Part shown: piece by piece, positions 273 through 31,980 of the stretch
How positions within the stretch are numbered: position 1 is the first letter of the stretch
Layout: the number at the start of each line of letters is the position of its first letter
Assembly (NCBI GenBank): GCA_000934665.2
Contig: JYFJ02004030.1
Location: forward strand, 1-35,451
Reading direction: 5' to 3'
DNA length: 35,451 nucleotides
DNA from: Catajapyx aquilonaris
Taxonomy: Eukaryota
Notes under the pieces: generated by a model
Seen by the model: the letters and a program-made list of their open reading frames with translations, nothing else
Told to the model about the DNA's origin: nothing
The model's database searches: none
Made by a program: the position numbers and the translations under genes

Positions 273-370
273 TATGAAAATAAACAGCCTGTATTTTCAA
301 CCGAAAAACCTTTAACATCGGCAAAATCACTGTCAAAATACATCTCCCAAGTGCATGACTTCTGACTCAC

Positions 371-3300
371 CTTAAGTGGAGTACCACGATACCAAGGTAT
401 AACTACTGCATCCTCCAATAGTGCAATATTAACCATTTCAGGGACATGCTCTTTGGAGTTGGCCAGGGTCACTGCATGCTTCACAGTTTCTTCAAACTTT
501 GGAGCATTGTTGACAATGTCCCAGTCAATATCCTTGGAATCCCCTAGGAACACAAGATGTCAGTGAAGACACTATTAGCTCTGCAGGAAAATGACAAGTA
601 CCTTTCAGAGGAACAATAAGACCTCCTTCACTGGTCTCATCATGTACATCGAATCTCAGCATCGGGTGTGTCATGCCCAACAATGTGTGGAAAAGGTAAT
701 TGTGGAATGTGCCTAATAAGGTCACTTCTTTCTTGTCCAGGACTTGATAAGGTTCTGACATTGCTTCCACTGTTACCCACACCATGCCGTACTTGGAGTA
801 CAGAGGAAATTTACACACCTAAATAGAAATTCTTTAACTAGGAAGAGCATATAGATACAGAAGAAATTGAAAAAAGGTGTTCGTAAATTACCTTAGGCAA
901 TTTGATGGCACACAACATTCCAAATGTGTTCCTGCTCATCTGGGGAGTCACCGTCTTCAGATCCCACTCTGACACAGCCTCCATTTTGAGGACATGTAAA
1001 TACATTTCCTTCCCAACTATCGGCCATGATCTTAAATATGCTTCTGGCGTAGCAATCTTGTAGAACTGCCTCCTCTTCTTGGTACCCACCTTGGGCTCGC
1101 TTGGGAGTGTCTGATCCTCTGGAGGCTCAACCCAATCATCTGGCTCCTCCTTAGGCTTCCTCCCAACTGGAAGAAGATGGGCCTCATCCAACTCCCCAGC
1201 ATCATACAGGACTTTACAGGCCTCCATGTAAACCGATTTCTTGGCTAAACCCACAGTTGGCATTGGAAGGCCTGTGATGTCCTCTCGAACTGGTGAATTA
1301 ATGGGCAAGCGCAGAGTGGCTTGAAACCTGGGTTGGTCTGATCCATGGTGCACATACCAGCAGAGAGGCGACAGGAAACTAAAGCGGTCCTGAGGGAGCA
1401 TGCTGCAGTACCTGATCAACAGCAAGAAATAAATGCAATTATGTTGGTGCAAAAGAATACTCAAATGTACTTACATATGAACAAGTGAGATGGCAGCAGT
1501 GTGGGCAATCATGGGTGCTCTTTCCTCTTTCCTTGGTTGGAAAGGAGGGAGCAACAGATCACCTTCTCTCTGATCTGACTCTTCATCTGGGGTCACAAAT
1601 TTGCACGGTGACCCAGCCTTGAGAACATTATAAAGAGTTTCTTCTATTTTCTTGAAGCTGTCAAGCTTCTTTCTGATCTCATCTTCTTTATATTCTGAAG
1701 TTAAAAGCACATAGCGTCCTTCTCGTTTCCTTGCTCTTCCCATTGATTGAACATATGAAGGGAATGATTGAGGAGGATCAAATCTGAGCACTAAATTACA
1801 CTTCGGTATATCTATCCCTTCTTCTAAGACACTTGTGGTGACAATGAGGTTGGATTCACCCGAACGAAAGCGCTCCATAGCTGCTTTCTGGCGCTTTACA
1901 TTAAACCTGGAAACCAAATTCTCATTTGGGTTTCCTTCGCTTGTACCCACCACAAACTGGGGTGAAATAAAGGAATACTCTGGCAACTCATTCCTCACAT
2001 CCTGCATGGAAGAAAAGGCTTCGTGGAATGAAATGTTTACGTACTATCACTAAAAAATAGCACGACCTTACCATAAGGAAATGGCTCAAAACCTGAGCAG
2101 TTATGCGCTCTTCGATAAAGATAAGCCCACATAGGCGATTGTCATTCTTCTCTTTGTCATTCCCTCTTCCATTCTTCTTCCAAGGGGATGTACCCACTAT
2201 CTGCTCAGCCTCTCTGTATCTAAAAAGAGTGACTGTTAGCTTCGTCTACAGTATAGACACATTAAAGTCAGGAGCTGACCAATGTCCATACCTGGAAAGT
2301 ATTCCCAGCATGTGCTTCACCTTAGGTTTGAGGAATCTACTCATCCTTTCTGCTGGTGAACACTGTGATAGCAATATGTCCAATCTGCTATGTATACAAT
2401 GCATCAAAGTCCTCACCAGAGAGTAGAACACCTCCTTTTTTTCTGTGCATATACGAATCTCCTTCTCCAAACGCACAATGATCAGTAAGGCAGCAATATT
2501 TGCACAGTACAAACCCATCTCGGATATTATGGACTGCATTGCACCTAAGAAGCTGCAATGGAAACACCTCTGCCATTATTATTTCTATTGAAATACATCG
2601 TCTTACAACCTTACCTGGTCAACGTTTTTAGTGGACGATGTATGATAGGAGATAGTAATATTCCATTGACCTTAGGTATTCTCTCTCTCTTGCTCATGGT
2701 ACTCTCCGCCCAAACAATCACATTTCTGGTCTCGGAAAGTTCCTGTTCTAGTCTTTCAATTAAACTAACAGTATCATGATCAAGGGTGTTGTCTGGACCA
2801 AACACGTCAAATTCTTCTGTTGGGTTGGTAGCATATTGTTCAACAACTGTGTGGTCATATGTGGCAGCCTGACTGCACATAGTGTGCTCCAGTGCTCGGA
2901 CCTTTTTAGCCACATTTGGAACTTTAACATTACTATTTATCAGTGTGGCAGTGAGGCCTAGTACTTGAGGAACATCCTGTCCTTGCTCATGTGCCTTCCT
3001 TAGATCATCCATGGCCACCCTCATGGGGTGGTCCCCCACTGCATGGTGACACTCATCCACTACGAGAAGTGCGACATCATTCCAGTGGATGTAGCTATGA
3101 TGAAGCATCTGTACAAAGACCTGAGGTGTCAGAGCCAAAACCTGGAAACATCATGTACTTGTAACAAAGCAACATATTACTGCCATAATTCTTATGAAAC
3201 CTTTAATAGTGAAGACATGATTGTCACGCAACATAATTAAAATGTGAAAATGAGCTCAATAGGAAACACATGGAATTCCGATTTTGAGCGCCTGCAGCGG

Positions 3301-3992
3301 CCAAACGCCATGGTAGATTTTCTTCGGCCTTCAGACAATTGACTTTGAAATCAAGATCTATCAACTGACCAAGTTTCATCCAAATCCATCTGGCACAACT
3401 TTACACGTAAGGACCCCACCATGTCCTTTCAAGACACAATTAAATAATAATTTACGCTAACCTCATGTTGTTCCATTTCTCTTTGCCATGTGTCATCGTC
3501 CCAGAGATCAACTTGTGCCTCTCCTGTGTAGCAAGCAACATCGAGGTTACTATTCTGCTGTATGTACTTACTCTGCTGATGCACCAATGGGACCGTCACT
3601 GCCAAAAAAAATATTTTCTTTTGATCCTTCCCTTTTGATCCGCTTCAAATGAAAAGATAAATCATTATTTTCGATAGGATGAAGACTTTCCAATCATTTT
3701 TATCTTATTCAAAATGCCAGTATAGTAGAAAAGAACTCACAGTTTCGTAGCAACATGCTTTATCAGCTGCAAGGCAATGAATGTTTTTCCTGAGCCAGTT
3801 GGCAGGAAAATCACTGTGTTCTGTTTCTTGGCACACTCCAACAGTGCAATCTGTCACAACATATAAAAATGATTGTAAATGTGTAGCACAATAACAGCCA
3901 AATAATTTCAAAATGAATATTCTGCTTACTTGATAATCCCGTGGTTCAAATAACGGAAATAAGACATCCTTACTCCCGTCTGCGCCGAGGGC
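371..3992 (-). CDS. Dcr-2: Dicer-2-like endoribonuclease, copy A (partial: helicase, DUF283, platform, start of PAZ; continues beyond the left window edge)
   Basis: Hand-spliced GT-AG exons: 3992-3930, 3850-3741, 3642-3462, 3141-2615, 2552-2292, 2219-2072, 2001-1475, 1411-892, 818-602, 543-371; phases are compatible and no stops occur. Motifs: FEPRDYQ, Walker [50 protein letters not shown]283 [34 protein letters not shown]. The first visible exon starts at an acceptor (ttttaag|GCC), so the ATG lies in an unidentified upstream exon. Confidence 0.9.
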
Positions 3993-5020
3993 CTTAAAAT
4001 AGATACATTAGGTGATGTCATCATGTGGAAATGAGGTAATGACAGGAAAAATAAGGGGGGAAATCATAACTTCAATCATGCTTTCCAGTGCTAGAGCGAC
4101 TCTAACGGTTTTGCAGATACGGCTTTTTCCCATGAGACGGCAGAGCAATAAAACGGTACCGCTACTGATTTTCAATAGATAACTCAGTGAATATGTTCAA
4201 CAATGCAACCTCGAGCTCCATATCCTCACGAAACCTTACAGGATCACTGGTATTACATAGCAACAATGAATAGTCACCTGACAGTTCGAATCATTCGAAT
4301 AACGAGGTTCAATGTGCCGGCCCGCAGTATGATTTTCATCAAACGTTTTCAGAGCACCAGCAGTTAAATCATCAACGTTGTACTCTAAAACAAAAAGAGA
4401 AAGCCGGTAAATACACTTGAGGTAAAATGAAGTAAAGCTACTGACCAGTCATGATCGCGTGAGTGTCTTGATTGCTGCTGAGTATGTGAGGTAGCCTGGC
4501 CTTTTTAATGCTGTATATGCATATCGGTCGGGTATCGGCGACTCACGAGTAGATAAGATTATCTTTCCTTGATTGCAATATCATATTTTACGTCTCAACA
4601 CAGAGTGCAATAATTGCTAACCGTACCCACAAGTTAAAAAAGCAGTATTATATTTAGAAACAAACTATGGATTATTTTATGCAAAAAATATAAAAATATA
4701 AACAAACTATGTAAGTAACATGTCTGACAAGTTCTATGAATTCAGTGGTTTTTTTAATTGAGAAAAAAAATTGCAGAAGGAAATGAAATCTTTCTTTGAT
4801 TTGCCATAAGTAGCCTAAAATAATAATGTTACAAAGTTATTTATATGCAGCTTGGCATGATGAATGTCCGGCCTTATTTTTGGTGTCACTTTCATAACCT
4901 AAAAACTGTTCTTTGATTCAGTCACGGGGACTGATCGCTTTGGTGAAAGCCCAGTGAAATTCATTGGTGTTTTATGACTAATATTCTATGTCTCCAAACT
5001 TACAATAATATCATTATTGT

Positions 5021-5339
5021 TATATGATTGTTTATACTTTGTGACACCTAGAAAAAATTACCTACAAGACCTGCCCACATTCCCCCCAACAAGCTATCAT
5101 CTCCTTTTCCAAAATATACCAAAGCAACACATATTTTCTCTATTTAAATTTTTCCAAAACGTGAACAAAAGAATTAATTTTTCAAAATACTAAATATGTT
5201 AAGGGTCATATGTTTATGTATTTAAAAAAAAACTAAAATTGGAAATTAGAAATTTGGCAGGGTGTGTGTCCCCCGAAACAGGACGCAATGTACGGAGAAA
5301 GGGGTATGAAAATAAAAAATTAAAAATAAAATAAAATAA
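5021..5339 (+). mobile_element. 5'-truncated non-LTR retroelement 3' end with A-rich tail and 14-bp TSD
   Basis: Direct repeat AATATCATTATTGT at 5007-5020 and 5340-5353; (TAAAA)n tail at ~5307-5340; the 5' part reads DCLYFVTPRKNYL, resembling the end of a LINE ORF2 CCHC region. Confidence 0.7.
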
Positions 5340-5599
5340 AATATCATTATTGTGGAGCCTCGAAAATTCTATTATTGAAATACTTGTGACAAGACAGGGA
5401 ATATTGTTAAGTATTGGTGGTAAGTTAAAACGTACGTAAGTGAACATTATTGTTGACTTTGCCACAAATTTTTATATGGCATTACAGCAATTCAAAATAG
5501 TGAATGTTGGTACAGTACCCACCTGACATTTTTGGTCCGTAACTCCGTATGGAATACCGTTTCAATTGTTGTCACGGTATTGTTGCATCATAATGGTGA

Positions 5600-5678
5600 G
5601 GCTTTAGTTCATATGTTGGGTTAGCTTGCGTCTCCCTTCATCGCTGACTACCCCTTATAAGGAAATGTGATGGTGATG
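5600..5678 (+). mobile_element. 79-bp extreme 3' fragment of the same RTE family with 10-bp TSD
   Basis: AGTTCATATGTTGGGTTAGCTTGCGTCTCCCTTCATCGCTGACTACCCC is a near-exact reverse complement of ~31421-31470; flanked by direct repeat ATAATGGTGA at 5590-5599 and 5679-5688. Confidence 0.85.
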
Positions 5679-5971
5679 ATAATGGTGACGTGAAGGGAAT
5701 AACGGAAATAATGTTGATTGGAGCCTTGGAATTTATTGAATAATATAAAATTGGTATCATAACCGCATACATAATATGGTAATAGGTAAAATGCAAAAAT
5801 GTATACAAAAATGTATTTTCAGGCCTTTTTTTGTTCCATTCGACATTTTAATTCAACTAGATATTCAACAGATCAAAATTGGGTCGAACTCATGTGCAGA
5901 ATATGATATGCTGCACCTGTCATCGCAAAGACTCAAAACTCTCTTTCAATGACACAGGAACCCTTGATTAG

Positions 5972-8900
5972 CTATTTTTTGAGATTCCTCAAAGCCAACT
6001 TTGCAGCTGCAGCTGTGGCTCTCTGCTTTCCTCTTCCTAGGCCATGAAACATCTGGTCCTTTCCTCCAATCTTGACACAGATGCGGACCACATCAAAGCC
6101 CTCTTTTTCAAACTCGTCATGAGCAACTGGCCTGCAAAAGTAAATGTTATGTCCACTCTTATGTATGCGTACTACATAGAGATGGACTAGTAGCAATATG
6201 ATATTAGTTCTCACCTGATGTCCAATCTGTGAGGATATCGCTCATGCAGTTCTCTGAGTGGTGACATGGGCACATTCCTTGTGAACTCAGTTATCTCTCT
6301 GTTCATCAAGGATTTGAAGACTCCCCACACCTTATTGAGGGACATCCCACTGTCCAGATATATTGCTCCAGCCAGAGACTCAAAGAGGTCTCCAAGCACC
6401 TTGGGTACTTCTATCTCGCCCGCAATGTCCTCGTCCTCACCTAGAAGCTCAAACTGAAAAAATGACATAAGGTCCACACTGAGACATACCGGTATGTGTA
6501 AAATAATTGCATCAATTCCATCAAAACGTTTTTAACAAAATATAATTATTTCCATTTGTCATAACTTCATCTGCAGCTTCATGCATGAGAAGCTCATGAA
6601 GTACTACTTACATGACCTGAAACTTTATGACCGTTTTCTTCCTGGTGAAGCACAAATCTGTCAATGACTGTCTGAAGTTGAGGTGAAGAGTGTCGCAAAT
6701 ATTTGTGGAGTCCCTCTCGCACAGCTATGGAGGCAAATGTAATGTTGTTCACCAGGGCAGAACGAAGGTCAGTCATCTGCCCAGGGGTCAGATTGGGGCC
6801 ATCCTCGTAAATGTGACGAGTAATCAAGTAATCTGTGTCAGAATGAAATAATTGATATTACATCACCTGGGAAATGAATAATCATTCGTGATGTATACTC
6901 GTACATACCTAGAACAGCATCACCCAAAAATTCCAGCCTCTGGTAGCAATCTGTAATCCGGTTCTGGAAGAACGATGCATGAGTAAAAGCTTGAAGTAAA
7001 AGGCTGACATCTTTGAACTTGTAGCCAATTCGTTTCTCAAGCCTATCCACTCCAAAGATGTAACTTTCGATTTCATCATCCATGTCAATTCCCATATTGT
7101 GGTAGTTAACAACAGCTGTTGGAAGTGGGTGGTGCAATGAGATCTCATCTCCTTCAAGACCCCTGTCCCTCATGCCAAGCCAGGACAGAAAGTGGATGGC
7201 AGCATCATCTCCACATCCAAGGAGATGTGCTCCTATCATGGCTTCCACACAATCAGCCACACTCTTATCCGAGACACTATGATGATGGAAGTAGCTAGTG
7301 AAGCCATTGACTTTGCAGGTATCAACTTCCTTTGGTGTCTCCCCAGTAATATTTTCTACTACACAATCCACTAGGTAACGAAGCTGCTTAGGGTCGAATT
7401 CAAACAGTTCTTCAGCAGTATACTCTTGAAGTGTGGTGTAATTTAAACCAAGTTCAATGAGGATGTCTTCCAGGGCTACTGGAGGCTAATAAATGAGAGA
7501 AACAAATTCGCAACAACTCTGCATTTTGCAAGTGTCAACAGTCCAAAAACAAAATAACAACACTCTAGTTCAAGAAAGAAAAATGTTGCCTTACCTTGAA
7601 TCCAGGTGGTGCACAAAAGTTCCTTGGCTCAAATGGATGGGAATTAATATATCCAGGTAATCCCTTCATCTTCCCTAGCTTATACAAAATCTTGTTATTG
7701 ATGAGTCGCATCCTGCGAGTGCTGAGCTTTCCTTCATCATCGCTCTTGTAGGCGCAGAAAAGGTGGACTGACACTGCGAATTTGAGGAATGAATCCCCTA
7801 CCATTTCTAGTCGCTCCAAGTCAAATCCATCGTTGCAGGCAGCCAATGTCAGAGCCTTTAGTAAGGAAGAGAGCTCAATGTCATGGCAGTGAATAGACCT
7901 AATTTGTGTGTGTCTCATGTTGTCAAGCATGTTGCGCTTCTTTTCCGGGGGTATGTAATGGTCTGCATTGCACTCATCATTTCTGGATGCCGATACAGGC
8001 TTAAAGGTGACTGAATTATGGAAAAGCTCAACGTCAGACAGAGTAACAGTGAAGATGCAGTCTTCAGGATCTACAATGACTTTGAACATGTCAAATGCCT
8101 GTCCATGATAATCTGTCACATGCACTGCGTCATCATCATCTGCAATAGGAAAAATAAATGTTTAGGAATATTAAGACTGTCAACACGACATGCCAGAAAA
8201 TTCTAAAAACAGTAGAAAAATATCACCCATTTATATGTAGTTAATAAACCAACTAGCCTGATACTATTTCACCATCCTCCAGCGTCTGCTCCTGATCACC
8301 ACCACTTGAAACCACACTGGTCCTAGTTCCATCAGCATTATCACAATTTCCTGCGGTCGTGATGGGACCATAAGACAAGGCTTTCCAGTCAGGTTTCCCT
8401 CTATTGTGTTCAAATCCAAGTGACGAGTACATATCCCCGGCCAGAAGAAGCTGTCTGTAGCGATGAAGAATGGAAGGGATGTGTAGGGCCTGAACTAGAA
8501 AGGAAGCAGGCATTGGATGGACACAACAGAGCTCAGGAACCAGGTGCTCCTGAAATTTGTCACGGTGCAACATTCGCCGTGATTCCTTATTGTGAGGGCC
8601 AGTCCTGGAATGATAACAAGGCAGAAGTGATAAAAGCAGTATAGCAAAAATGATGTAACAACATCCCAATAAACCTTTGAACATAATTATTTCAGGTTCA
8701 ACAGTAGGAAAACTAGAGTTAGCTTACTGGTGAACTAGTAAGTTAACATGGAATGATCCCTGTGATCCAATTTGCTTCACTTCAATCAATGGCTGGTCCT
8801 GGTGCTGCACGTCGAGCTTGTATTTCTCTTTGTAGTAAGCCTTGTAAGTGGCATATGTCTCTCCAGAGGGGAATGGGGAGGAAGGAGTAATATCACTACA

Positions 8901-11900
8901 GTTCTCCACAATGCTGTAGTACTGTAAATAATATTCATTTCATGTCATAAGGATCAGGCATTAAATAGTAGCAATTTAGTGTTACTTAAGTCTGAATATA
9001 TTTCGCTACTGAAATAAGTCAATTATCAATTTGATGACCCTTAATATAAATGTAAGTAATGGCGCAATGTATCTGCTAAAATAATGACAATTCAGTTCTT
9101 CAACAAATTAAGTGTAAATTTACATTTGCAGTTTTAAATTAAACATGTAAAATTAATCAGGTGGTCATATATATTTTATTCCATATCAAAATATGACCCT
9201 TTAGCAGTATGACCCATATAACCATTATTTAAGTTGCTGTAAAAATACACAATACAGGCTAGCCAAATTCCATCAAAATAAGACCATTGATATCGGACTA
9301 TTTGAGGAACAATAATTTTGTCAGACAGAAAAATTACTGTAATGTGAGGTATTTTCATATTTGCAACAGCTTCACTAGTATGCAAATAAGTTCCATATAC
9401 CTATTATCGACTGAGAAACCTGCTAAAAATAATTCTTTCAATTTAACCTAGGCAAAATTACTATCAAAACTCGTCAAATAAGTGCACCATTGCTGCCTCA
9501 CCTTAAGTGGAGTACCACGGTACCAAGGTATTACTACTGCATCCTCCGAGAGAGCAGTATCAATCATTTCAGGGACGTGCTCTTTGGAATTGCCCAAGGT
9601 CACTGCATGCTCCACCGTTTCTTCAAACTTTGGAGCATTGTTGACAATGTCCCAGTCAATATCCTTGGAATCCCCTAGGAACACAAGATGTTAGAGAAGA
9701 CACTATTAGCTCTGCATGAAAATGACAAGTACCTTTCAGAGGAACAATAAGACCTCCTTCACTGGTCTCATCATGTACATCGAATCTCAGCATCGGGTGT
9801 GTCATGCCCAACAATGTGTGGAAAAGGTACTTGTGGAATTTGCCTAATAAGGTCACTTCTTTCTTGTCCAGGACTTGATAAGGTTCTGACATTGCTTCCA
9901 CTGTTACCCACACCATGCCGTACTTGGAGTACAGAGGAAATTTACACACCTACATAAAAATTAGAATTAAGCATAAAGAATAAATGGAACAAAAATGTTT
10001 GTAAAATACCTTAGGCAATTTTATGGCACACAGCATTCCAAATATGTTCTTGCTCATCTGGGGAGTCAACATCCTCAGATCCCACTCTGACACAGCCTCC
10101 ATTTTGAAGACATGTAAATACATTTCCTTCCCAACTATCGGCCATGATCTTAAATATGCTTCTGGCGTAGCAATCTTGTAGAACTGCCTCCTCTTCTTGG
10201 TACCCACCTTGGGCTCGCTTGGGAGAGTCAGATCCTCTGGAGGCTCAACCCAATCATCTGGCTCCTCCTTAGGCTTCCTCCCAACTGGAAGAAGATGGGC
10301 CTCATCCAACTCCCCAACATCATACAGCACTTTACAGGCTTCCAAGTAAACCGATCTCTTGGCTAAGACCACAGATGGCATTGGAAGCCCTGCGATGTCC
10401 TCTCGAACTGGTGAATTAATGGGCAAACGCAGAGTGGCTTGGAATCTGGTATTGTCTGATTCACGGTCCACATACCAGCAGAGAGGCGACAGGAAACTAA
10501 AGCGGTCCTGAGGGAGCATGCTGCAGTACCTGCAGTAAGAAATAAATGCAATTAAGTTGGTGCAAAAGAATACTCAAGTGTACGCTACGTACATATGAAC
10601 CAGTGAGATGGCATCAGTTTGAGTAATCTTGGGTGCTCCTTCTGCTTTGCTTGGCTGGAAGTGAGGTAGCAACCTCTCAGCATCACCATGATCAGACTCT
10701 TCATCTGTGGTCACAAATCTGCATGCTGACCCCTCCTTGAGAGCATTCCGAAGAATCTCTTCTATTTTTTTGAAGATGTCAAGCTTCTCTCTGATCTCAT
10801 CTTCATTAGATTCGGATGTTAATAGTACATAGCACCCTCCTCGTTTCCTTGCTCTTCCCATTGATTGGATATAGGAAGTAAATGTTTGAGGAGGATCAAA
10901 TCTAAGCACTAAATTACACTTCGGTATATCTATCCCTTCTTCTAAGACACTTGTAGTAACAATGAGGTTGGATTCACCAGAACGAAAGCGGTCCACAGCA
11001 GCTCTCTGACGTTTTGCATTAAACTTGGAAAGCAAATTCTCATTTGGGTTGCCCTGGTTTCCCACCACAAACTGGGGTGAAATAAATGAATATTCTGGCA
11101 TTTTCTCCTTCACATCCTGCATGTGAAAAAACAGTTATGTTAGTTTAATGAAAAAAAACACATATCAATAAAAAATAGTAAGTGCTCACCATAAGGAAAT
11201 GGCATATAACCTCAGCTGTTATACGTTCTTTAACAAAGATAAGCCCACAGAGGCGATTGTCACTTTCCTCTGTGTTATTACCTCTTACATGGTTCTTCCA
11301 AGGGGATGTATCCACCGTCTGCTCAGCCTCTCTGTACCTACAAAGAGTGACTGTTAATGACACATTAAAGTCAGGAGCTGACCAATGTCCATACCTGGAA
11401 AGTATTCCCAGCATGTGCTTCACCTTAGGTTTGACGAATCTACTCATCCTTTCTACTGGTGAGCACTGTGATAGCAATATGTCCAATCTGCAATGTATAC
11501 AATGCATCAAAGTCCTCACCAGAGAGTAGAACACCTTCTTTTTTTCTGTGCATATGCGAATCTCCTTCTCCAAACGCACAATGATCAGTAAGGCAGCAAT
11601 ATTTGCACAGTACAAGCCCATCTCGGATATTATGGACTGCAATGCACCTAAGAAGCTGCAATGGGAAGCCATTATTATTTCCATTGAAATACTTTATCTT
11701 ATTACCTTACCTGGTCAACGTTTTTAGTGGACGATGTATGATAGGAGATAGTAATATTCCATTGACCTTAGGTATTCTCTCTCTCTTGCTCATGGTACTC
11801 TCCCCCCAAACAATCACATTTTTGGTCTCTGAAAGTTCCTGTTCTAGTTCTTCAATTAAACTAACAGTATCATGATCAAGGGTGTTGTCTGGACCAAACA

Positions 11901-12973
11901 CTTCAAATTCTTCACTTGGGTTGGTAGCATATTTTTCAACAACTGTATGGTCATACGTCACAGCCTGACTGCCCATAGTGATTTCCAGTTTTCGGACCTG
12001 ATTAGCCACATTTTCAACCTTAACATTACGATTTATCAGTGTGGCAGTCAGGCCTAGTACTTGAGGAACCTCCTGCCCTTGCGCACATGCCTCCTTTCTG
12101 TCTTCCATGGCCACTCTCATTGGGTGGTCCTTCACTGCATGATGACACTCATCCACTATGAGAAGGGCCACATTTTTCCAGTGGATGTAGCTATGGTGAA
12201 GCATCTGAACGAAGATCTCAGGTGTCATAGCCAAAACCTAAAATTCATTTCGGATGTATTAGGCAGATATTGTATCCCTGCTTTTTAGTAAGAACTAAGA
12301 ACAGACAAGTTCCTAAATATTTCAAGACGTAATAATTGCAAAAAATTTAACTTGCCTCATGATGGCCCGTTTCTTGTTGCCACGTGACTTTGTCCCAGTG
12401 ATCAACCTGTCTGTCTCCAGTGTAGCAAGCAACATCAAGATTAATATTCTGCTGTATGTACTTGCTCTGCTGCTGGACCAATGGGACAGTCACAGCCAAG
12501 AAAACTATTTTCTTCTGATCCTTCCCCTTTGGTCCACTTCAAATAAAAGATAAAAAATAATCAACATTGTCGTTTGCACTTTCCAATAATTTTTGACCTT
12601 ATTGCAAAAGGGACTTAACTACACTTACAGTTTAGTAGCAACATGCTTGATGAGCTGTAGGGCAATAAATGTTTTTCCAGAGCCAGTGGGCAAGCAGATC
12701 ACTGTGTTCTGCTTCTTGGCAAACTCCAACAACGCAATCTGTCAGCATATAAAAATGCATGTAAATAAGTAGCACTACAATAGTAAATGATTATTCTGCT
12801 TACTTGATAATCCCGAGTCTCGAATAACACATCCTTAAGAGCCTGTAAATGACCATGTAAAATTTAAACTCACAGTTGCAGTATGTAAAATATTCATTTG
12901 GCTTTGTCTCTGGTGGAATTTCTGTTAGACTAGCCACCCAGGGGCAAATACACAAAATGACCCATACCGCCAT
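5972..12973 (-). CDS. Dcr-2: Dicer-2-like endoribonuclease, copy B (complete, ~1660 aa)
   Basis: Exons: putative ATG GCG micro-exon 12973-12968 (uncertain), 12842-12804, 12738-12629, 12536-12356, 12237-11711, 11655-11395, 11337-11190, 11116-10593, 10529-10010, 9949-9733, 9674-9502, 8921-8728, 8604-8258, 8139-7595, 7485-6909, 6832-6612, 6453-6215, 6131-5972. Without the micro-exon the total is 4983 nt, in frame, ending TAG. Domains: DExD/H helicase ([16 protein letters not shown]), DUF283, PAZ (YKAYYKEKY..DQPLIEV, HLVPELC), RNase IIIa ([22 protein letters not shown]), RNase IIIb ([21 protein letters not shown]), C-terminal dsRBD. The intact helicase, short RNase IIIa insertion and overall length favour Dcr-2 over Dcr-1. 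Confidence 0.93.
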
Positions 12974-15384
12974 TGCACATCTTCCACTGCACCTCTCACC
13001 CTGCCTGGGTGTGACTGCTGTTCAAACTGTACCAAAATGGCAACTATCAGCCAGTCATCACCTGATTGGAGGAGCCTAGATAAGATTACAACCAGTGTTC
13101 CAGTAGCAAGACGTGTATCCGGCCAGTTCCACGTGCACGATCATTAACTTTTATTACAACCATTACTCATGATACTGGACACCCTTATCTCTGCAGGACA
13201 AAACTTGCAAGAGCACATGAACAACACATTGCGTAACGAGAGTCTGTTTAGTCTCTTACTAGACAACTCTTAATGTTCACTCGAACAACTGTATGACTCG
13301 TTCTCTTGTTTTTGGTGGTGACTCCTCTTCTGCATGTCATCTCCAACCGCTCGCTTATAATTGGTTACTCTTCATTGACGTCAACATTGCTGTGGTATTC
13401 ATTGTTTTCCTTATGGAGGCGCACTGTTTCTTATCAACATCTCTCTGCACAATGGCAGACGCAAAAATGTGTCTGCGCCTACATTCTTGCGTCACAGGGG
13501 GAACTAAGATGAACTTTGAACATTCGCATAACTTACCAAATGTTTCTCATATTTTTTTTTGCATTTAAAATTATCAATTTTTAAAATAATATATTATTGA
13601 AAAGGCGATCATTTGCCTCAAAATAAAGAGTTTGTGGGGTTTATTTCGGTTTATTTTGTTATAATAATTATATTATGTTCTCATGTTTAACCATGAGGAA
13701 ATGACCACGGTCACAAAGTCACCCCTCATGACCAGCACAACCTGTGAGCACAACTGACGTACCGATCATCTGGTGACCGGTCAGGTCATGTAGAGGATAT
13801 AAAATTGTTTTAAAAATAGTTTACAAATGGCTTAAGCTGATGAAATGGGAATCAGATTCGCTCCTGTAGTGGTTGAGAATGTGCTGACTAGTCGTTGGCG
13901 GCAATACTGGCGAATCAGACTTCATATTTTATACACCGCGAGGTTTCAATGATCATTACTGGCCGGCCTACGTACAATAATTACAATTTAAAGACGATAA
14001 GGGAAAGGCATAATCGTATTGTTAAAAACAATTAGTTCGAAAATTATTCACCAAAATCACCACATTCAATGGATACGGTAGCATGTTTACAGGGAGAGAT
14101 TTTTCAGTGCAATTTATTCGTGAAAATAATTTTATTTTTGACAGGTTGAATCAAGTGAGTGTTTTTTTTTAAATGTTTCCTTAGTTTTTGTCACCTGATG
14201 TTGCCGTAGGTTAATAACTGACTACAATATTTCCGGAATATTGTCACATGTCAACAGCGGACATACGTCTCCATTGCCAATATGCCATTATGGTATGTAT
14301 AGCACATTATTTTATGCTTCCAAATAGCTGCTAATTAACACCTTTTATCAATGCAAACTTTTAGTTTGTTATTTTTAAATGAGATTCTGACCTCAAATCC
14401 TGCCATTTGCCCTGTGCTTCTCAGGAATTTGAGCTATAGATAGAGCATCGTCTCCAGCGTCGCCAGTGTTTCGCCGGATTCTAATTTGCTGTTCGGAAAC
14501 TGTCTGATTTTTTTTTCAGTAAAAAATATTATTTTTTTGTCCCTCCAGATGATTTTGTACAATAATTAGTTTTACAGGTTGCGTTTCTCGGCAACATCCA
14601 CTATGTGCTGCAAAAGGTAAAGCGAGCACAGCGGGGAAGAGCCCGCCGCATGCGGATTTTTTGGGGGTTCAAGGTCGCACAATATTAGGCGAATGTAACT
14701 GGACAGAGAACAGTGGAATCCTCCTGCACTGTAAGCACGTCTGATATTATTTTATTATATTTATTTTATTTTTATTTTATCTTATTTTGAGTACACAAAA
14801 GCGATTTTACCACCGTACAGAGCCAGGAGTAATAAGCCCCCACAATTACCGTGCAGCAGGTTGGCAACGCTGCATGGCTGGGTAGGATATTGAAACCGGA
14901 GAGCTTATATATCCAGTGTTTGCAAGGGCATCTTGACCTTTGGGTCAGGCATGGCACATATGGGGATTTCCCCCAGCCTCAAGGCTGCAAGCCCCATTGG
15001 TCAATTCAATGCTCCTGACACCCTCATACAAATAATATCATCAAGAGCCATCGGTCAGTGACTATTCCCTCCGCCGCTGGTTGAAGCGCCACTGGTACTT
15101 TGCCATCTACCGGAGGGAAGTGCAACTACTAATGTTCGTTCGGAGGGATTCAATCAGACACTACCCATTGTTGTCTGATTATTCCGCCACGTGCGAGCTG
15201 GTCAGACGCATTCAGAGTTGGGCAGGTGATGCAGGAAGCATTGTTTGGCAGGACATGCCATGGATAGGTAGCCGTGGACCAAGGAGTGTTTTCTCTGGTC
15301 GTACCAGGCAATGTGAGTTATTAACTTATTATTTGTTGGACGAAATGTGTGGAGGGTCGAACTCCATCGAGGCCAAGATAGACC

Positions 15385-15418
15385 TATTTGACCTTGACAC
15401 ATGTGTCAAGGTCAAATA
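15385..15418. repeat. Perfect 34-bp palindrome between the divergent Dicer copies B and C
   Basis: TATTTGACCTTGACACA|TGTGTCAAGGTCAAATA. Confidence 0.9.
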
Positions 15419-16578
15419 ACATATCATATAACGAAAGTGGCTGGATGCTGGCAGCTGGTGGGAACCATTTATGCTTTAGGAGTTTAGGTAGACCCTGTTT
15501 GTCATCATACATGGGAAGTACATGTCAATTTTCATTGAGAACTGTACAATAATTAAAAATAAGTTCTTGAGCAATGTTTGGGTTTCCATGCGAGAATCAT
15601 CCTGTACAATAATTGACACGTGATACGAACAAGTTATCCCAAGTTGGTGGCTCGACAGTCTCAGAATTTGATATTTAAAAATCGTGTGCTTATACACACA
15701 CATGAGCTGTTGCTAAAATCGAAATTAGAGCCAACCAGTTGAAAATCCCTAGGAGATATGGCAACGTCTTTCGGCAACAATGGAACCGGACTGACAATAT
15801 ATTTCAGGTGGAGTTATTGTTGTAACCCAATGATCATATATATCGAAAGAACGGGAATGAAATGAGGAATATTGTGGTGGCAACAGTTTTAACCTAGAAC
15901 GCAAAATAACAATTATAAACAAATTCTCATTATTGTTCAAAAATGGCACATTTCAGATGGTCCAATGTCACTGTTAAACACATGTTAGGAGTGTGAAATT
16001 AATATGGTAGATACATTGCCATACACATGGTACTTACTACTGTGGAAGGAAAACATTACAGGTCAAGCAGTCTTGGAAATAAAGAAAATCCTGAAATTCC
16101 ATTTTTCTGTAAGTTGGTCATATCTTGGAGGTCATTTTTTCTGGGTCGATTTTAAAGTTACATGTGTTGAAAGAATAGTCTTTTTGTGCTTGATTTATAG
16201 ATATATAAGAACGGTTCAGTCCCCCTGAGCGGTTCACCCCCATATCATTAAATACAGCAGCGCCAAATAACGTAGAGTAGGCGTACACGAGTATTTTAAA
16301 ATGTTCTGGTGTACCTCGCAGGGGGACTAGATTAAAACTGCTGCCGTCACAATATATTAGTGATGTACAGTAATTGCGTAACTTCTGTTACACGTCAAAC
16401 GAGGTGAGATTGTGCCAGGAGGGGTGAGATTGTGCCGCGCATTTTTGGACAACAGTGACAGCAGACGTAGCGAATTCACTGCACGTCTGAATATCAAATT
16501 TTTCAGATGTTTAATTTTTATTATGTTGCAGGAAATTACTGCTGAACTTAATCTAAATTTTGTGTTTATTTGAAGGCA

Positions 16579-19500
16579 ATGGATTCAGATGGTAGTAAGG
16601 ATAATATGTTATTCGAGACTCGGGATTATCAAGTAAGCAGAACATTCCTTTACATTATTTTGCTGCTTTTGTGCTACAAATTTACACTCAATTTTTATAT
16701 GCTGACAGATTGCACTGTTTGAGTTTGCCAAGAAACAGAACACAGTGATTTTCCTGCCAACTGGCTCTGGAAAAACATTGATTGCCTTGCAGCTGATAAA
16801 GCATGTTGCTACGAAACTGTGAGTTCTTTTCTACTATACTGTCACCAATAATGTAATGATAATAATCATCTGCCCATTTTGAATAAGGTAAAAATGATTG
16901 GAAAGTCTTCATCCTATCGAAAATAATCACTTATCTTTTATTTGAAGCGGACCAAAAGGGAAGGATCAAAAGAAAATAGTTTTCTTGGCAGTGACGGTCC
17001 CATTGGTGCAACAGCAGAGGAAGTACATAGAGGAGAATAGTAACCTTGATGTTGCTTGCTACACAGGAGATACACCAGTTGATCTCTGGGATGAGGACAC
17101 ATGGCAAACAGAATGGGACCAACATGAGGTAAGATTAATTTATTTACAATTATTGTGCCTTGAAATTTTTAGAAACTTGTCTGTTAGACTGCAAAATACT
17201 GTATACGGTCAAAGGGCTGCTCAGTTTCAGTTTTTTAGAATTTAAATTGTCCAAAGAAAGCCGTGTAAATCTTAAATAAGCTCTACCATTAGTGTTTGGC
17301 AATGTATTTTTCGAGTCACATATTGTTTACTAAAACTCGCAATGAACAATTTACTTTAAGATAGCGCCATACGTAAGTGTGTGTACCATGCGGAAAACTT
17401 TCAAAGTGGGATATATTATAATGGGATAGTTAACTCATCAAGTTCATTACATATGTATATATGTCAGTGATTGTCCACCAAAAAGGCCTGTTTGGCCCAT
17501 AAAGGGGTCAATTAAAAAAATAAATAATAATAATAATAAAATGTCAGTGATTAAGAAGATAATTATCGCTAAAAATTGGGCATCATCTACTAGTGCCATT
17601 TAAATTTAAATTATAATTTGTGATATTTTAAACCTTGGTAATAGTGCATTGATGAGTACTACTTTTATAGGTAAATGTCACAATTATTGTGTATTTTGTC
17701 GGTTTTTACTATTTGCTTGGGTTTGATAGTGACAATTTTTTTCCACGCTGAATATGTTTGTCAGAAGTTTATGATATATCCTGCTTTATTATGTTATGTT
17801 TCCAGGTTTTGGCTCTGACACCTCAGGTCTTTGTACAGATGCTTCATCATAGCTACATCCACTGGAATGATGTCGCACTTCTCGTAGTGGATGAGTGTCA
17901 CCATGCAGTGGGGGACCACCCCATGAGGGTGGCCATGGATGATCTAAGGAAGGCATATGAGCAAGGACAGGATGTTCCTCAAGTACTAGGCCTCACTGCC
18001 ACACTGATAAATAGTAATGTTAACGTTCAAAATGTGGCTAATGAGGTCCGAGCACTGGAGCACACTATGTGCAGTCAGGCTGTCACATATGACCATACGG
18101 CTATTGAACAATATGCCACCAATCCAAAGGAAGAATTGGAAATGTTTACGACAGCCAACACCCTTGATGAAAATATTGTTAGTGTCACAAAGGATATAAA
18201 TCAGGAACTTGTAGTGACCAGAGGGTGGATTGCTTGGCTGGAGATTGCCATGCGCAGGAGAGAGCAACTTCCTATAGTGAGTGGCACATTACTAACTCCG
18301 GTCAAGAAGTGCTTACTGAAAAAGTTGTCCAGGTAAGATCCTGAGGCCTAATGCATTTCAATTGAAACATTTTTAGTTATGTTTTATTGGAAAGAGAGTG
18401 TACATCATGTCCTACATAATTCAGTAGTGGCTACATGATAACTTGGGAACTCCTGCCTCAAGTTATCATGTGGAGCTGTAATAAAAGATTATGGCAAGGA
18501 TGTGTGGGTCCTGGTCCTGCAGCTTAGAGTAACATAGATGACAGTACCTTCCAATTGCAGCCTGGTGGGTTCAATGCAGTCCATAATATCAGAGATGGGC
18601 TTGTACTGTGCTGATGTTGCTGCATTACTGATCATTGTGCGTTTGGAGAAGGAAATTCACATGTGCAAAAAAGATTATCAGGAGATGGCCTACCGTCAGG
18701 TACAGACTATGATGCATTGTATTCATGCCAGGTTGGGCAACTTGCTATCGCAGTGCTCACCAGCAGAGAGGATGACAAAGTATGTCAAACCTAAGGTGAA
18801 GCGCATGATGGAGATACTTTCCAGGTATGGGTACGCCGCAGCTGTTGTTTGGTCAGCTCTTGAAGTTGTTTTTTGTCTGTCCTGGTGTATAAAAGACCAA
18901 CAGTGTAGCAAGCACTCTTATGTAGGTACCGAGAGGCTGAGCGGATGGTGTATAAGACCAAGCATGTAAAAGGGAATGGCAAAGAGGAAAATGATGGTCG
19001 CCTCTGTGGGCTTATATTTGTTAAAACACGCATAACTGCTCAGGTTCTGAGCTACTTCCTTTTGGTGAGCACATACTATTTTTCATTGCTAATACATGGA
19101 TTCTTTATTCAACTAAGGCTCTTTCTTCCATGCAGGATGTGAGTGAGAAGTTGCCCGAGTATTCATTTATTTCACCCCACTTTGTGGTGGGTACAAACCA
19201 GGGAAAGCCAAATGAGAATTTGATTTCCAGGTTTAATGCAAAATGCCAGAGAGATGCTGTAGAGCACTTTCGCTCTGGTGAATACAACCTCATTGTCACC
19301 ACAAGTGTCTTAGAAGAAGGGATAGATATACCAATGTGTAATTTTGTGCTCAGATATGACCCCCCAAGGAACTTTACATCCTATGTTCAGTCAATGGGAA
19401 GAGCCAGAAAATTGGGAGGGCGCTATGTGCTTTTAACCTCAGAGTCTGAAAAAGATGAGATTAGAAAGAGAATTGAAACTTTCAAGAAAATACAAGAGAA

Positions 19501-22500
19501 TCTTCGGACTGTTCTCAGGGAACGGTCAGCATGCAGATTTCTGGCCATAAATGAAGACTGTGCCGAAGAGTCTGATCATGGAGAAGCTGAGAGCTTGCTT
19601 CCTCCCTTCCAGCCAAGAAAAGAAGAAGGAGCACCCAAGATTACCCAAACTGATGCGGTATCACTGGTTCATATGTAAGTACTGTGCATTTGAGGATTTG
19701 CACCAACTTAACAGTTACAGTACTGATTAGGTCAGCACTTTAACAATTGCATTTATTTCTTACTGTTTATCAGGTACTGCAGCATGCTCCCTCAGGACCG
19801 CTTTAGTTTCCTGTCCCCTCTCTGCTGGTATGTGAACCATGGACCAGACCATACCAGGTTCCAAGCCATTCTACGCTTGCCCATTAATTCACCGGTTCAA
19901 GAGGACATCGCAGGTCTTCCAATGCCATCTGTGGTCTTAGCCAAGAGATCGGTTTACTTGGAAGCCTGTAAAGTGCTGTACGATGTTGGGGAGTTGGATG
20001 AGACCCATCTTCTTCCAGTTGGGAGGAAGCCTAAGGAGGAGCCAGATGATTGGGTTGAGCCTCCAGAGAATCAGACTCTCCCAAGCGAGCCCAAGGTGGG
20101 TACCAAGAAGAGGAGGCAGTTCTACAAGATTGCTACCCCAAAAGCATATTTAAGATCATGGCCGATAGTTGGGAAGGAAATGTATTTACATGTCCTCAAA
20201 ATGGAGGCTGTGTCAGAGTGGGATCTGAGGATGTTGACTCCCCAGATGAGCAAGAACATATTTGGAATGTTGTGTGCCATCAAATTGCCTAAGGTATTTT
20301 ACGAACATTTTTGTTCCATTAATTTTGTATGTTCTTCCTAGTTAACGCTCATTTTTATGTAGGTGTGTAAATTTCCTCTGTACTCCAAGTACGGCATGGT
20401 GTGGGTAACAGTGGAAGCAATGTCAGAACCTTATCAAGTCCTGGACAAGAAAGAAGTGACCTTATTAGGCAAATTCCACAAGTACCTTTTCCACACATTG
20501 TTGGGCATGACACACCCGATGCTGAGATTCGATGTACATGATGAGACCAGTGAAGGAGGTCTTATTGTTCCTCTGAAAGGTACTTGTCATTTTCCTGCAG
20601 AGCTAATAGTGTCTTCACTAACATCTTGTGTTCCTAGGGAATTCCAAGGATGTTGACTGGGACATTGTCGACAATGCTCCAAAGTTTGAAGAAACGGTGG
20701 AGCATGCAGTGACCCTGGCCAACTCCAGAGAGTATGTTCCTGAAATGATTGATGCTGCACGTTTGGAGGATTCAGTAGTGATACCTTGGTACTGCGGTAC
20801 TCCACTTAAGGTGAGGCAGAAGTGCTGTACTTGTGTTAGGAGTTTTGACAGTTATTTTGCTTCTAAAGGTTAAATAGTAAGAATACATAATGGCATGTTT
20901 TGCAGTTAGAAATCAAGTTAGAAGTACATCTATCATATTAAAAGCCTTGCGGTGTTGGACCAAGCCTTATGATTGGTCCGCTGCATATATTGTTACCGCC
21001 TCCTCCCCATTGGCCTGCGTTCTACTTATGCGCAATGGGGTGTAAACAACTCCCCTGTTGGGTTGCCGGGGAAACTGTCCATTCCTTCTCTGCATATTGT
21101 TGCCCAGTCGGGACTACTGTGAAGTTGTTTACAGAGACAGTTCCCTTTTTGGAACAACAGACACAGGACAGACATGTTCTCACTTCTCACTAAAGGGGCC
21201 ATTCGAAGACTGCTGGAGGGTTAACCTTACACCCTCCCCCGGTGATGTGGTGCTCCGAATAGGTGCCACAGGCCTAGAAAAGAGCAACCAAAGAGAGAGG
21301 TGTTCTGTACGAGATGGGTCGGTGAACGAACGCAAGCGGGTGCCCAATTTTATTACAGGAATTACATTACAAACTGTATTCCGACCTGTCATAAAATTGG
21401 CCATCTGCTTGCGTTCGTTCGCCGACCCATCTATAGGCCTCGGGCCTAGGAAAATGCAGAGGAGCGAGGGTTTTCCTATAGTATCTGTTTATTTTCATAC
21501 TATAGTGAACCTGTTGCCAAAATTAAAATAACATGTACTACCAATTACAGTTTTCTGTCTAGCATTATTGTGTCTGAAGTAGGCAGATATCACTGGTTAT
21601 ATATTGATGGGATTTTCTCATGGGTGGCTTGAAATGTGTATATTCGAGGCAACTATAATATTGGGTCAATATTATTGTTCTGATGGGTCATATTGAATAT
21701 GACAATGAAAGTTGATAATTTCCAACCATAGTTTATTTCCTGCATACTGTGACTATGTATTTTATTACAAGCTACTGTCCTGACATTTTGACAAAAATAA
21801 CTTCCAGACACAGTAGCTAAGCCGAAAGCCTCGTGTCAAATGACATTGTTTTAAAACATGCATAAGGTGTTGTTGAGTAATGTGCAGTACATTTTCCAGG
21901 AAGAAAAGGTGGGTTTGTTACAAGAGAATGGACAGTAATAGAACATTTCTGACTTATTCTTATTTAGAATCAGCGCCAATGAATGCATAATAGACAGCTA
22001 AAATCGTTCATGTAACAAAATCCTTGTTGACCAGTGTAATTTAATAAAAGAACAGCAATAATGATGTCATAATTATGTTTTGTGTAATAATAATAATAAT
22101 TATAGTATAATAATTTGTACCCCGTGCTAGAGCCGTGGGCCCTCTTAGGGGATACCACCATATTTTTTTATCTGGAACTCTTGCTTTCGTTTTTACTACT
22201 CGTATAAGGGGATGGGATAGGGACGGAAGGAAACGGCTGTGGCCTATAATTACGGACACGACCCCGGAATTTTCCTGGTGAGACCATGGGAAACCACAGA
22301 AAACCACGGTCAGGGTCGGCGGCCACTGGGATTCGAACCCAGGACCTCCCGATTAGCAGTCGGATACCATATCCCCTCCGCTACCACTGCTTCGGTTATG
22401 TTATGTGTATGCCCTACTATGAGGGAGTAGCCAGGAGTGGTCAGAAAGAGGTTTTGTCAATGTTGTTTCAATATTTGTCACTGCAACTGTCTGTTGACTG

Positions 22501-27919: not shown

Positions 27920-28579
27920 ATGATAAGAGAAATATTGCTCAAAGGATTTATTGGTATGATAGGAGTACTTAGTAACCTACAGATAATCCCACATGACTTT
28001 TCACAGCAGACTTTTTTCATAGAGTCCTATCACTCCTGTGTTTCTTGCTGTACCCATGCTGTTTGTCTTGATTGCCATTTACCAGGCATTATTCTACTTT
28101 AATGGTAGAAAAATTGTTGACACCTGACAGGTGAAACTATCCTGTATGACATGAAAATCTCAAAATAATATGTAATATTCATAAAATAAGTGATATTTAC
28201 TTCCTTCTATTATGGGTACATATATGCAATTCTCTGCCACCCAGAAGTACAGATTCCTGTGATAGATCTCTTACTTGTCATCATTTTCTCTTCACAGAGC
28301 TTTCTGTTGCTGGAATTTCAGGCTCGTCTGTTCATGCTTACCTGATATAATATTTCACCAGAAGTAAAGTAGGCCATAAGATGCATTTAATTACAGGAGA
28401 TGGCAATCATGACAATACCTACAAGGGCTTCGCATTTTAAGGCTAATACTCTGGTTGCAGGGGAAATATTTACGGTAGATGGAAGGATTTTTAATGTGCT
28501 AAGAAGTTACACCATCGCCAAATCTAGCCACGATTCGCATATAAAAGGAATAAATCGATTGGAATCGGTCAGTTCCAGC

Positions 28580-30520: not shown

Positions 30521-31381
30521 ACGTGACTATAGTACGTATAAGTAAGGGCTACCATTGATTTCAGTCCAATTACAAATAAATTATGTGATCCTTTTTATTG
30601 TTCCTTCCTCCCTGTAATAAAATGGTTGATTAAATTTTTTATAATATTTGACACCCTTTCTATGAAACCTGAACAATGTCACCTGTTATTTTTGGCCTAG
30701 AATCACATGGCCAAGGACACCAAAGGAATACCCTGCATTTATGTTCATGTCTTGCATTATTGTGACACCTATTAAAAGTGTACAGGAGGTCCTCTTGACC
30801 TACTAGGTGCAACATTTGCTACTGTCTTTTACATTTGACAATTTAAAACAGTCATGCTGGTCTAAATTATTTTGGAATGGCATGTACACACATCATGGCC
30901 ATCTAGACATCAGAGAACGGCTAACAATGCCCCAGCCCATAAATGCAGTCAATTCACTGCTGAATCACATGGTAAGTGCACCACTCACCTCCTGCCATCT
31001 GGATAATTATCTGGTCATATTAAATTTCATTTTAATTAACAATATATGAGATAAAATTATGTGATCAGGGATGATGGTTTTAACAATGGCTCACACAGGA
31101 GTTTCGTTTGGCGGGGGTGTTTGTCAGACGTCAGAACCGTTATATTAGTTCATATAGTTATATTATAATAATATAATAATCGAATGATTCGAATCCACCC
31201 GGCAATGACGTCACATACTGCTACGCGATAATTGGTCCGGACCTTTGCTGCGTTGCCACTTCTATCTGTCACACGCGTACCAACTGAACGTGTTCCAAAT
31301 CCGACACAAATGAAGAGCTACAGGCTCCCCTTTCGGAACTAAACTTTTAAAAATGCCATGACAAATTGAGACCTCGTAATT

Positions 31382-31980
31382 ACAACAACAACAACAACAA
31401 CATCACGACATTTCCCTATGAGGGGTAGTCAGCGATGAAGGGAGACGCAAGCTTACCCAACATATGAACTAATAAAACTCATGAGAATAAACCTAAAAAC
31501 AACCTGTCCCACCCCTGCTCACCTCAGACATCACCTTATCCTTAGACATATAATTTATCTATTTACCCATTAATTAACCTACGCCATTTACACCTATCCA
31601 AACAAGCAACCCTAGCCTCAGCCACGTCCATGGTCCTACTGACACAAGAACGTCTCGGCTTAACACTAGCAACACCCTTAAGACACTGACCCACCTGGTC
31701 CAACCATGTCTTCCTAGGCCTACCCTTGCCCCTCTTACCAACTACTCCACGCAAATAAACCTTCTTCACAATCTCCTCCTCCTTCATCCTCTCCACATGG
31801 CCAAACCACCTTAGAGTAGACCTACACACCTTATCTTTAACAGTCTCCTTAACATTACACCTCTCCAAAATCTCCTCATTCCTAATCCTATCGAACTTGG
31901 TAACCCCACAAACAGCCCGGACATAACGCATCTCTGTAGCCAACACACTACTCTTATGCCTATCTGACCAAACCCACGAC
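31382..31980 (-). mobile_element. 5'-truncated RTE-clade LINE fragment (ORF C-terminus, 3' UTR, (TTG)n tail)
   Basis: ORF 31563-32036 contains EMRYVRAVCGVTKFDRIRNEEI..LRWFGHVERM..GKRGKGRPRKTWLDQV, typical of the post-RT C-terminus of RTE elements; (CAA)n microsatellite at 31383-31400 marks the tail. Confidence 0.88.

Follow-up and report, generated by a model that had tools for sequence, protein, structure and literature searches.

Do neighbouring copies of a Dicer gene evolve on their own, or do they exchange sequence with one another? This question is raised by a stretch of DNA from Catajapyx aquilonaris (NCBI GenBank assembly GCA_000934665.2, contig JYFJ02004030.1, positions 1 to 35,451 of the forward strand), whose full length of 35,451 nucleotides (nt) we refer to as the window. 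Three animal-type Dicer paralogues are located within about 27 kb of it; copies A and B are arranged in tandem, and copy C is inverted. An initial annotation, prepared from the letters of the sequence, had proposed that these paralogues are three-way mosaics in which the closest pair of copies switches along the helicase region. Our analysis makes it very probable that three intact, clustered Dicers have traded sequence repeatedly through interlocus (ectopic, non-crossover) gene conversion.

Comparison of the window with itself revealed a first set of homologous segments (A, 307-4007, minus strand; B, 9442-12832, minus strand; C, 16561-20871, plus strand) and a second homologous pair (5972-8960, minus strand; 24109-27386, plus strand). 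Pfam domains place the first set in the N-terminal half of Dicer, with DEAD/ResIII, Helicase_C, Dicer_dimer and Dicer_platform, and the second in the C-terminal half, with PAZ, two regions of Ribonuclease_3 and Dicer_dsRBD; B and C are therefore full-length Dicers that stand head to head. Searches by tblastn with four full-length Dicers from a representative library, which were the closest proteins identified there, gave results that are collinear with this layout of three genes.

The closest pair of copies along the gene

Ten exons were placed in each copy from a three-way MAFFT alignment. Segment identities refer to the ungapped columns of this alignment and are given in the coordinates of A, 5' to 3' along the gene; A is encoded on the minus strand, and its exon numbers go up as the coordinates go down. 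Inside exon 4, the partner that A resembles changes from C to B. The last site at which A agrees with C and differs from B is A 2860, and the first at which A agrees with B and differs from C is A 2848, which makes the breakpoint of about 2860 named in the initial annotation exact. Sites shared by A and C against B (AC|B) and by A and B against C (AB|C) number 43 and 0 on the 5' side of this switch, and 6 and 127 on its 3' side (Fisher p = 6e-35). Within one and the same pair of copies, synonymous divergence (dS) changes abruptly between the 5' part of exon 4 and the adjacent segment formed by the 3' part of exon 4 and exon 5: it rises from 0.00 to 0.45 between A and C (0 differences over 64 synonymous sites beside 36 over 107; Fisher p = 6e-9), and it drops from 0.30 to 0.05 between A and B (Fisher p = 3e-4). 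Such a comparison of adjacent segments within a pair is independent of any outgroup, and the abruptness of the change excludes pure rate or selection effects.

Because the body of intron 3 is non-homologous between A and C, the similarity of these two copies comprises at least two tracts. The older one is that of exons 1-3 (A 4000-3575), where dS is 0.14 between A and C versus 0.72 between A and B and 0.52 for the remaining pair, and where 26 informative sites of intron 2 are of the AC|B type versus 1 and 1 of the other types. The recent one (A 3151-2860), about 230-290 nt in length, differs between A and C at 6 of 292 sites and is identical over its first 160 nt, with identities of 83.2% for A-B and 84.6% for B-C in the same stretch. 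The A-B tract on the other side of the switch (A 2848-2256, about 590 nt) is 95.9% identical between A and B over 586 columns (A-C, 75.3%; B-C, 76.1%) and has a dS of 0.05 versus 0.45 (A-C) and 0.35; in introns 4 and 5, 18 informative sites are AB|C versus 5 and 2 of the other types. With an A-B identity of 83% and 84% in its diverged flanks, it forms a discrete tract of high identity, and the recent A-C tract (97.9%) adjoins the non-homologous intron 3 at one end and the A-B tract at the other. That A resembles C in intron 2 and early in exon 4, and B from about 2860 onward, had been proposed in the initial annotation and stands; the conceptual translations of the three copies contain all the peptides quoted there. 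Thus, ALTPQVF... is common to A and C where B has AMTPEIF..., and GPDNTLDHDTVSLIE...KTLT is common to A and B and differs in C.

Exon 6 and the 5' part of exon 7 are star-like, with dS values of 0.36-0.47 for all pairs and synonymous patterns of 12/13/15, and the three-way homogenised block at A 818-509 (310 columns, the intron counted) has a dS of 0.00 for all pairs. Read in successive segments along the gene, dS is 0.14, 0.00, 0.45, 0.47, 0.11, 0.00 and 0.21 between A and C, and 0.72, 0.30, 0.05, 0.36, 0.10, 0.00 and 0.30 between A and B.

The clustering of these patterns is far from random. Informative sites make up 620 of the 3321 ungapped columns (152 BC|A, 213 AC|B and 255 AB|C), and neighbouring informative sites carry the same pattern 358 times, versus 214.5 +/- 11.5 in permuted data (0 of 10000 permutations reach 358). 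The longest runs comprise 28 sites for AC and 38 for AB (0 of 5000 permutations each), and 8 for BC (25 of 5000). A GENECONV-like scan gave dominant fragments for A-B (A 2848-2256, score 97.6, where the 99.9% permutation value is 16.6), A-C (A 4000-2860, 67.5) and B-C (A 1639-481, 17.6), and each of these three scores was matched in 0 of 2000 permutations. Synonymous and intronic sites, at which the initial annotation had suggested the mosaic be checked along with a GENECONV analysis, switch as well. At neutral sites, defined as introns plus those codons whose amino acid is identical across A, B and C, the 5' block has 7/65/5 sites of the BC|A, AC|B and AB|C patterns, and the Hel2i block has 8/2/34 (chi-square 77.6, p = 1.4e-17), so that the neutral sites carry the signal of both the A-C and the A-B tracts.

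Table 1. Dicer paralogues of the window and the segments into which their alignment falls; segments are given in coordinates of copy A.
Feature	Position	Strand	Remarks
Dicer paralogue A, exons 1-10 (helicase, DUF283, platform)	371-3971	-	3' half beyond window position 1
A exons 1-5	3971-3930, 3850-3741, 3642-3462, 3141-2615, 2552-2292	-	
A exons 6-10	2219-2072, 2001-1475, 1411-892, 818-602, 543-371	-	
Dicer paralogue B, full length	5972-12847	-	helicase 9502-12847; 3' half 5972-8939
B domains PAZ, RNase IIIa, RNase IIIb, dsRBD	5972-8939	-	Pfam PAZ, Ribonuclease_3 twice, Dicer_dsRBD
Dicer paralogue C	about 16580-27386	+	helicase 16580-20810; 3' half 24109-27386; Pfam Ribonuclease_3, Dicer_dsRBD
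A-C tract, exon 1 through early exon 3	4000-3575	-	387 columns; A-B 74.9%, A-C 90.7%, B-C 77.5%
Intron 3 body	3461-3142	-	not homologous among copies; 320, 118 and 677 nt in A, B and C
A-C tract, last 10 nt of intron 3 and 5' 282 nt of exon 4	3151-2860	-	A-C 97.9%
Switch from A-C to A-B, inside exon 4	2860-2848	-	B 11944-11956, C 18087-18099
A-B tract, 3' exon 4, intron 4, exon 5, start of intron 5	2848-2256	-	
Star-like background, exon 6 and 5' exon 7 (Hel2)	2255-1640	-	A-B 83.7%, A-C 80.3%, B-C 79.5%
Exon 8 (DUF283) and intron 8	1411-819	-	A-B 92.6%, A-C 92.4%, B-C 94.8%
Three-way homogenised block, exon 9, intron 9, early exon 10	818-509	-	A-B 98.4%, A-C 98.1%, B-C 98.4%
Rest of exon 10 and intron 10	below 509	-	A-B 84.8%, A-C 84.8%, B-C 86.3%

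Probable gene conversion and competing explanations

Gene conversion is supported for the A-C tracts, the A-B tract and the three-way homogenised block. We envisage a background of about 80-85% nucleotide identity (dS of about 0.4) that would have been overlaid by discrete tracts of varied age (dS of 0.00, 0.05, 0.10 and 0.14): an older one shared by A and C across exons 1-3, a very recent one, likewise of A and C, where exon 4 begins, one of A and B over the Hel2i-coding part, and three-copy homogenised blocks in exon 8 and in exons 9-10. Double-strand-break repair templated by a paralogue would be the mechanism that we infer for these exchanges, as we infer their number and order. Since introns have been converted too, the template was genomic DNA; conversion from complementary DNA can be ruled out, as introns 2, 4, 5 and 9 are affected as well. 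Likewise, the copies cannot be allelic haplotigs, given a background identity of 75-85%, unequal intron lengths and their position in one contiguous window. The initial annotation had left the choice between gene conversion and unequal crossover. Recombination as such is borne out by the A-C dS of 0.00 versus 0.45; unequal crossover fits less well, because C is inverted and the A-B similarity is an internal patch. Together with the break at the non-homologous intron 3 and the unequal ages of the tracts, these features are best fitted by non-crossover conversion, of which several tracts are needed.

The alternative that holds up best, although its chance of being correct is slim, is that A arose as a single chimeric duplicate, with a C-like 5' part and a B-like middle joined by unequal or non-allelic recombination, and underwent a few local conversions later. 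Both strong tracts indeed involve A, the C-like part extends to the 5' edge of detectable homology (A about 4007), and A and B lie in direct orientation, 9.1 kb apart. However, a simple crossover between A and the inverted C would produce an inversion rather than a chimera, and the A-B block is internal, with diverged sequence on both sides. Moreover, the dS values of the tracts are unequal (A-C, 0.14 vs 0.00; A-B, 0.05), and the three-way homogenised blocks would still require additional exchanges.

A second alternative attributes the mosaic to the assembly: mis-joined or over-polished paralogous reads might have rendered A first C-like and then B-like. Over 160 nt of the recent A-C tract the two copies are 100% identical, a stretch that exceeds the length of many short reads and can mislead assemblers and polishers, and none of the contigs listed bridges the junction in A. 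Yet A-private letters are present in and beside both tracts (6 letters unlike C in the recent A-C tract, 24 unlike B in the A-B tract), with one on each side of the switch, at 2864 and 2851, and the stretch over which B and C are identical at the switch is at most 13 bases, too short for a mis-join through k-mers. Every one of the 30 bins of 850-20849 is covered by de Bruijn contigs assembled independently from the DNA runs X1-X3, and none of these contigs was reported to carry a variant letter in A 850-4300; among the pieces listed, B 11872-12823, C 16898-17825 and C 18053-19314 carry 0 other letters in all three runs. The ends of the B and C pieces match, to the base, the unique-31-mer stretches computed from the three copies as assembled. 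A as assembled equals C from 17796 onward and for 39 nt just before 18083, and equals B for 52 nt just downstream (in gene direction) of 11902; the contigs end at these borders in B and C because A as assembled shares those stretches. In addition, run X1 contains 86 of 100 sampled 31-mers of A 2300-3400. An assembly artefact is thus an unlikely source of the mosaic, and we give it very little credence.

That no recombination took place, and that copy- or region-specific rates or selection mimic the switches on one tree, is next to impossible: three sequences form an unrooted star in which the closest pair can reflect branch lengths, and the replacement sites of exon 8 fit a faster protein evolution of A, but the switch is as strong at synonymous and intronic sites as at replacement sites, and rate variation cannot yield the 0/64 beside 36/107 synonymous differences between A and C.

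The third leg of the mosaic as it had been proposed, a similarity between B and C within exon 8, is weak. It holds at the amino acid level, where replacement sites number 14/5/6 (BC|A, AC|B, AB|C) and where two peptides are common to B and C while A has PTVGLAKKSVYMEAC and DLKTVTPQMSRNTF instead. Intron 8 gives 9/4/3, and exon 8 and intron 8 together give 27 BC|A, 13 AC|B and 14 AB|C sites (p = 0.034); dS in exon 8 is about 0.10 for every pair. In an unrooted star of three sequences, an excess of B-C sites is equal to a longer branch of A. The excess would fit any of three readings: conversion between B and C, replacements private to A, or conversion of A from an unseen copy.

Several observations weigh against repeated exchange among three intact copies. 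Synonymous sites in exon 8 show no excess of the B-C pattern (4/4/5), so that this leg lacks the neutral signal of the other two. Among 1.84 billion representative proteins no close outgroup or orthologue was found, the best match being 42% identical, and therefore neither the direction of transfer nor dates can be shown. Maximum-likelihood protein trees built for each domain with four distant outgroups (about 35-40% identical) support a pairing of A with B for Hel2i only (90/93); bootstrap values for Hel1, Hel2 and DUF283 are 49-59%, and approximately unbiased (AU) tests on these trees rejected no alternative (p 0.10-0.47). Rooting with such distant outgroups is too weak, and the domain-wise trees were not used as support. 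Runs X1-X3 come from one DNA sample that possibly was the source of the assembly, so they cannot count as independent evidence; the longest contig pieces, which are those listed, include none across A 2848-2860, and the support for the junction in A is therefore indirect. Finally, a comparison of the first shared exon (A 3930-4010, B 12804-12850, C 16580-16632) yielded an in-frame ATG in C only. A and B have no ATG there before the upstream stop and carry an acceptor-like AG; their start codons may sit in unshared upstream exons.

Gene models, transcripts and neighbouring sequence

In other respects, the three genes look functional. The conceptual coding sequence of exons 1-10 amounts to 2706 nt in A, 2694 nt in B and 2706 nt in C, with zero stop codons, corresponding to open frames of 902, 898 and 902 codons. 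The introns between these exons are all of the GT-AG type in the three copies, except that the one after exon 3 in B has a GC donor. The helicase motifs GSGKT, DECH, TAT and QSMGRAR are intact in all three translations. Pfam matches identify the Dicer helicase in A (exon 4, DEAD, E = 8.4e-6; exon 7, Helicase_C, E = 2.8e-16) and the dimerisation and platform-PAZ portion in A and B (A Dicer_dimer, E = 3.5e-20; A Dicer_platform, E = 8.9e-8; B PAZ, E = 1.6e-10); the PAZ domain of C was found by tblastn only. Two RNase III regions and a dsRBD are present in B and C, and the 3' half of A lies outside the window. The RNase III catalytic signature E[RH]LEMVGDSFL occurs intact, together with a second 11-residue RNase III motif, in both B and C.

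A spliced contig from run X5, whose type is not on record, excises intron 3 of C (17127-17803 or 17129-17805) with GT..AG ends at the predicted borders, and two further spliced contigs, on 5723-6435 and 7933-8393, excise introns in the 3' half of B. We read these contigs as transcripts and regard them as evidence for transcription of B and C and for the correctness of the exon model at intron 3 of C. No X5 contigs were found on copy A (850-4184), a blank that is uninformative about its expression. One of the introns excised from B (8140-8257) has CT..GC ends on the plus strand and, along with the intron after exon 3 (donor at 12354-12355), gives B two GC-AG introns.

Intron 10 of C (20811-24108) is about 3.3 kb long versus about 560 nt in B. 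Within it, one segment matches 34369-34769 at 75% identity, and positions 23463-23499 and 23941-23977 form a 37-nt inverted repeat; such content suggests the insertion of repeats. The homology of A with B and C ends inside intron 10, at about 307. Positions 1-307 of the window are rich in G/C runs and begin with an 82-nt tandem duplication (1-79 vs 82-161, 82% identical).

In the RNase III region of B (7035-7250), contigs from X1-X3 have C at 7072, G at 7119, T at 7128 and C at 7147. The letters at 7072, 7128 and 7147 are those of copy C, and the one at 7119 is found in neither B nor C; the contig keeps the letters of B at 7102 and 7108, and none has the window's own letters at 7119-7147. These mixed letters imply that a third RNase III-region sequence exists in the reads, which probably represents the 3' half of A or a fourth copy and looks mosaic as well.

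Just downstream of B lies a very high-copy repeat, a 65-nt element (5604-5668) with a 95% identical, inverted counterpart at 31408-31472; its word depth in X1-X3 is about 7300-7700, versus about 30-60 elsewhere, and loose ends are numerous at 5605-5659. Beyond C, positions 28391-30520 hold an uninterrupted frame of 709 codons with a Pfam Lig_chan match (E = 1.1e-10), resembling ionotropic glutamate receptors. Its 5' region (27984-28579) recurs with 85% identity at 34871-35451, where a second copy of this gene probably begins at the end of the window. The 1 kb from 31001 to 32000 has a GC skew of -0.35 and minus-strand open frames that lack a Pfam match.

Domain context, relatives and implications

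The part of A that resembles C carries helicase motifs Q to III, that is, Hel1, with motifs II-III in the 5' part of exon 4. The switch falls about 30 residues past the TAT motif (motif III), and the A-B tract runs from there through exon 5; judged from collinearity rather than from a fold, this tract would correspond roughly to Hel2i, and we infer that the switch is near the border between Hel1 and Hel2i. The helicase of A is thereby predicted to be a C-like Hel1 paired with a B-like Hel2i. Exon 8 encodes Dicer_dimer (DUF283) according to Pfam. The labels Hel1, Hel2i and DUF283 that the initial annotation had given to the exchanged segments hold in outline, through motifs I-III, a weak match to the structure 4wyq and the Pfam assignments; its DUF283 leg is inseparable from replacements private to A.

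Exons 4 and 5 have matches among structures of the animal Dicer helicase, a member of the RIG-I-like family. Exon 4 matches the reconstructed AncD1D2 (9mw6, residues 114-254, E = 7.7e-23), human Dicer (147-293 in the numbering of 5zak, E = 1.5e-14) and Drosophila Dicer-2 (7w0a, E = 2e-13), and the sole PDB match of exon 5, a weak one (E = 0.16), is 4wyq, the partner-binding Hel2i fragment of human Dicer. By these alignment scores, the copies in the window are close to neither the Dicer-1 nor the Dicer-2 type. The search of representative proteins mentioned above returned 6431 matches at E <= 1e-3; a search for homologues of exon 4 in longer proteins gave 0 of 646 candidates at E <= 1e-10, and one of the Protein Atlas gave generic Dicer_dimer clusters only and no useful taxon.

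The ratio of nonsynonymous to synonymous divergence (dN/dS) is below 1 in all segments with a dS above 0. For C against A or B, the Hel2i block has a dN of 0.26 and a dN/dS of 0.58-0.76, which exceeds that of exons 1-3 (0.11-0.16 in unconverted pairs; Fisher p = 8e-4) and is not higher than that of Hel2 (p = 0.15).

Interlocus gene conversion and concerted evolution are familiar in tandem gene families such as the globins, the major histocompatibility complex (MHC) and plant resistance (R) gene clusters. The Dicer cluster resembles such families in that paralogues a few kb apart share near-identical tracts of a few hundred bases between diverged flanks, in that the signal is intronic as well as synonymous, and in that the partners vary by segment; it differs from them in that the genes are Dicers and that one partner is inverted. 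Our full-text literature searches, whose coverage did not extend to subscription journals, found no paper on gene conversion between Dicer paralogues; the process is ordinary and, for Dicer, apparently not previously described. The closest report is a study of tardigrade Dicers, which raises concerted evolution a single time, as something that might explain the constant clustering of two copies from the same species (PMC12505628). The tardigrade expansion is similar in having multiple full-length, helicase-bearing copies per genome. The cluster described here is different in that exchange is seen directly at the nucleotide level, with tract borders mapped.

What would such exchanges mean for the function of these enzymes? 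The initial annotation had envisaged the generation of chimeric sensors of double-stranded RNA (dsRNA), as in immune gene clusters. This is not implied by the data, because much of the signal is homogenisation. A related and still doubtful possibility, suggested by the position of the switch and by the divergence of Hel2i, is that the cluster acts as a module-swapping dsRNA sensor in which a Hel1 motor and a fast-evolving Hel2i surface are recombined near their domain border under arms-race selection. Were this true, module swapping would join ATPase cores to RNA- or partner-binding surfaces in combinations new to Dicer, which selection would maintain in an antiviral or anti-transposon contest. 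Copy A, as a natural chimera, offers a means to ask which helicase sub-domain sets the preference for dsRNA ends, the dependence on ATP and the binding of partners. Dicer trees, in turn, serve to date duplications and to assign copies to the microRNA, small interfering RNA or antiviral pathways. If clustered Dicers exchange segments, trees of whole genes would average conflicting histories, and the ages of the copies would be underestimated.

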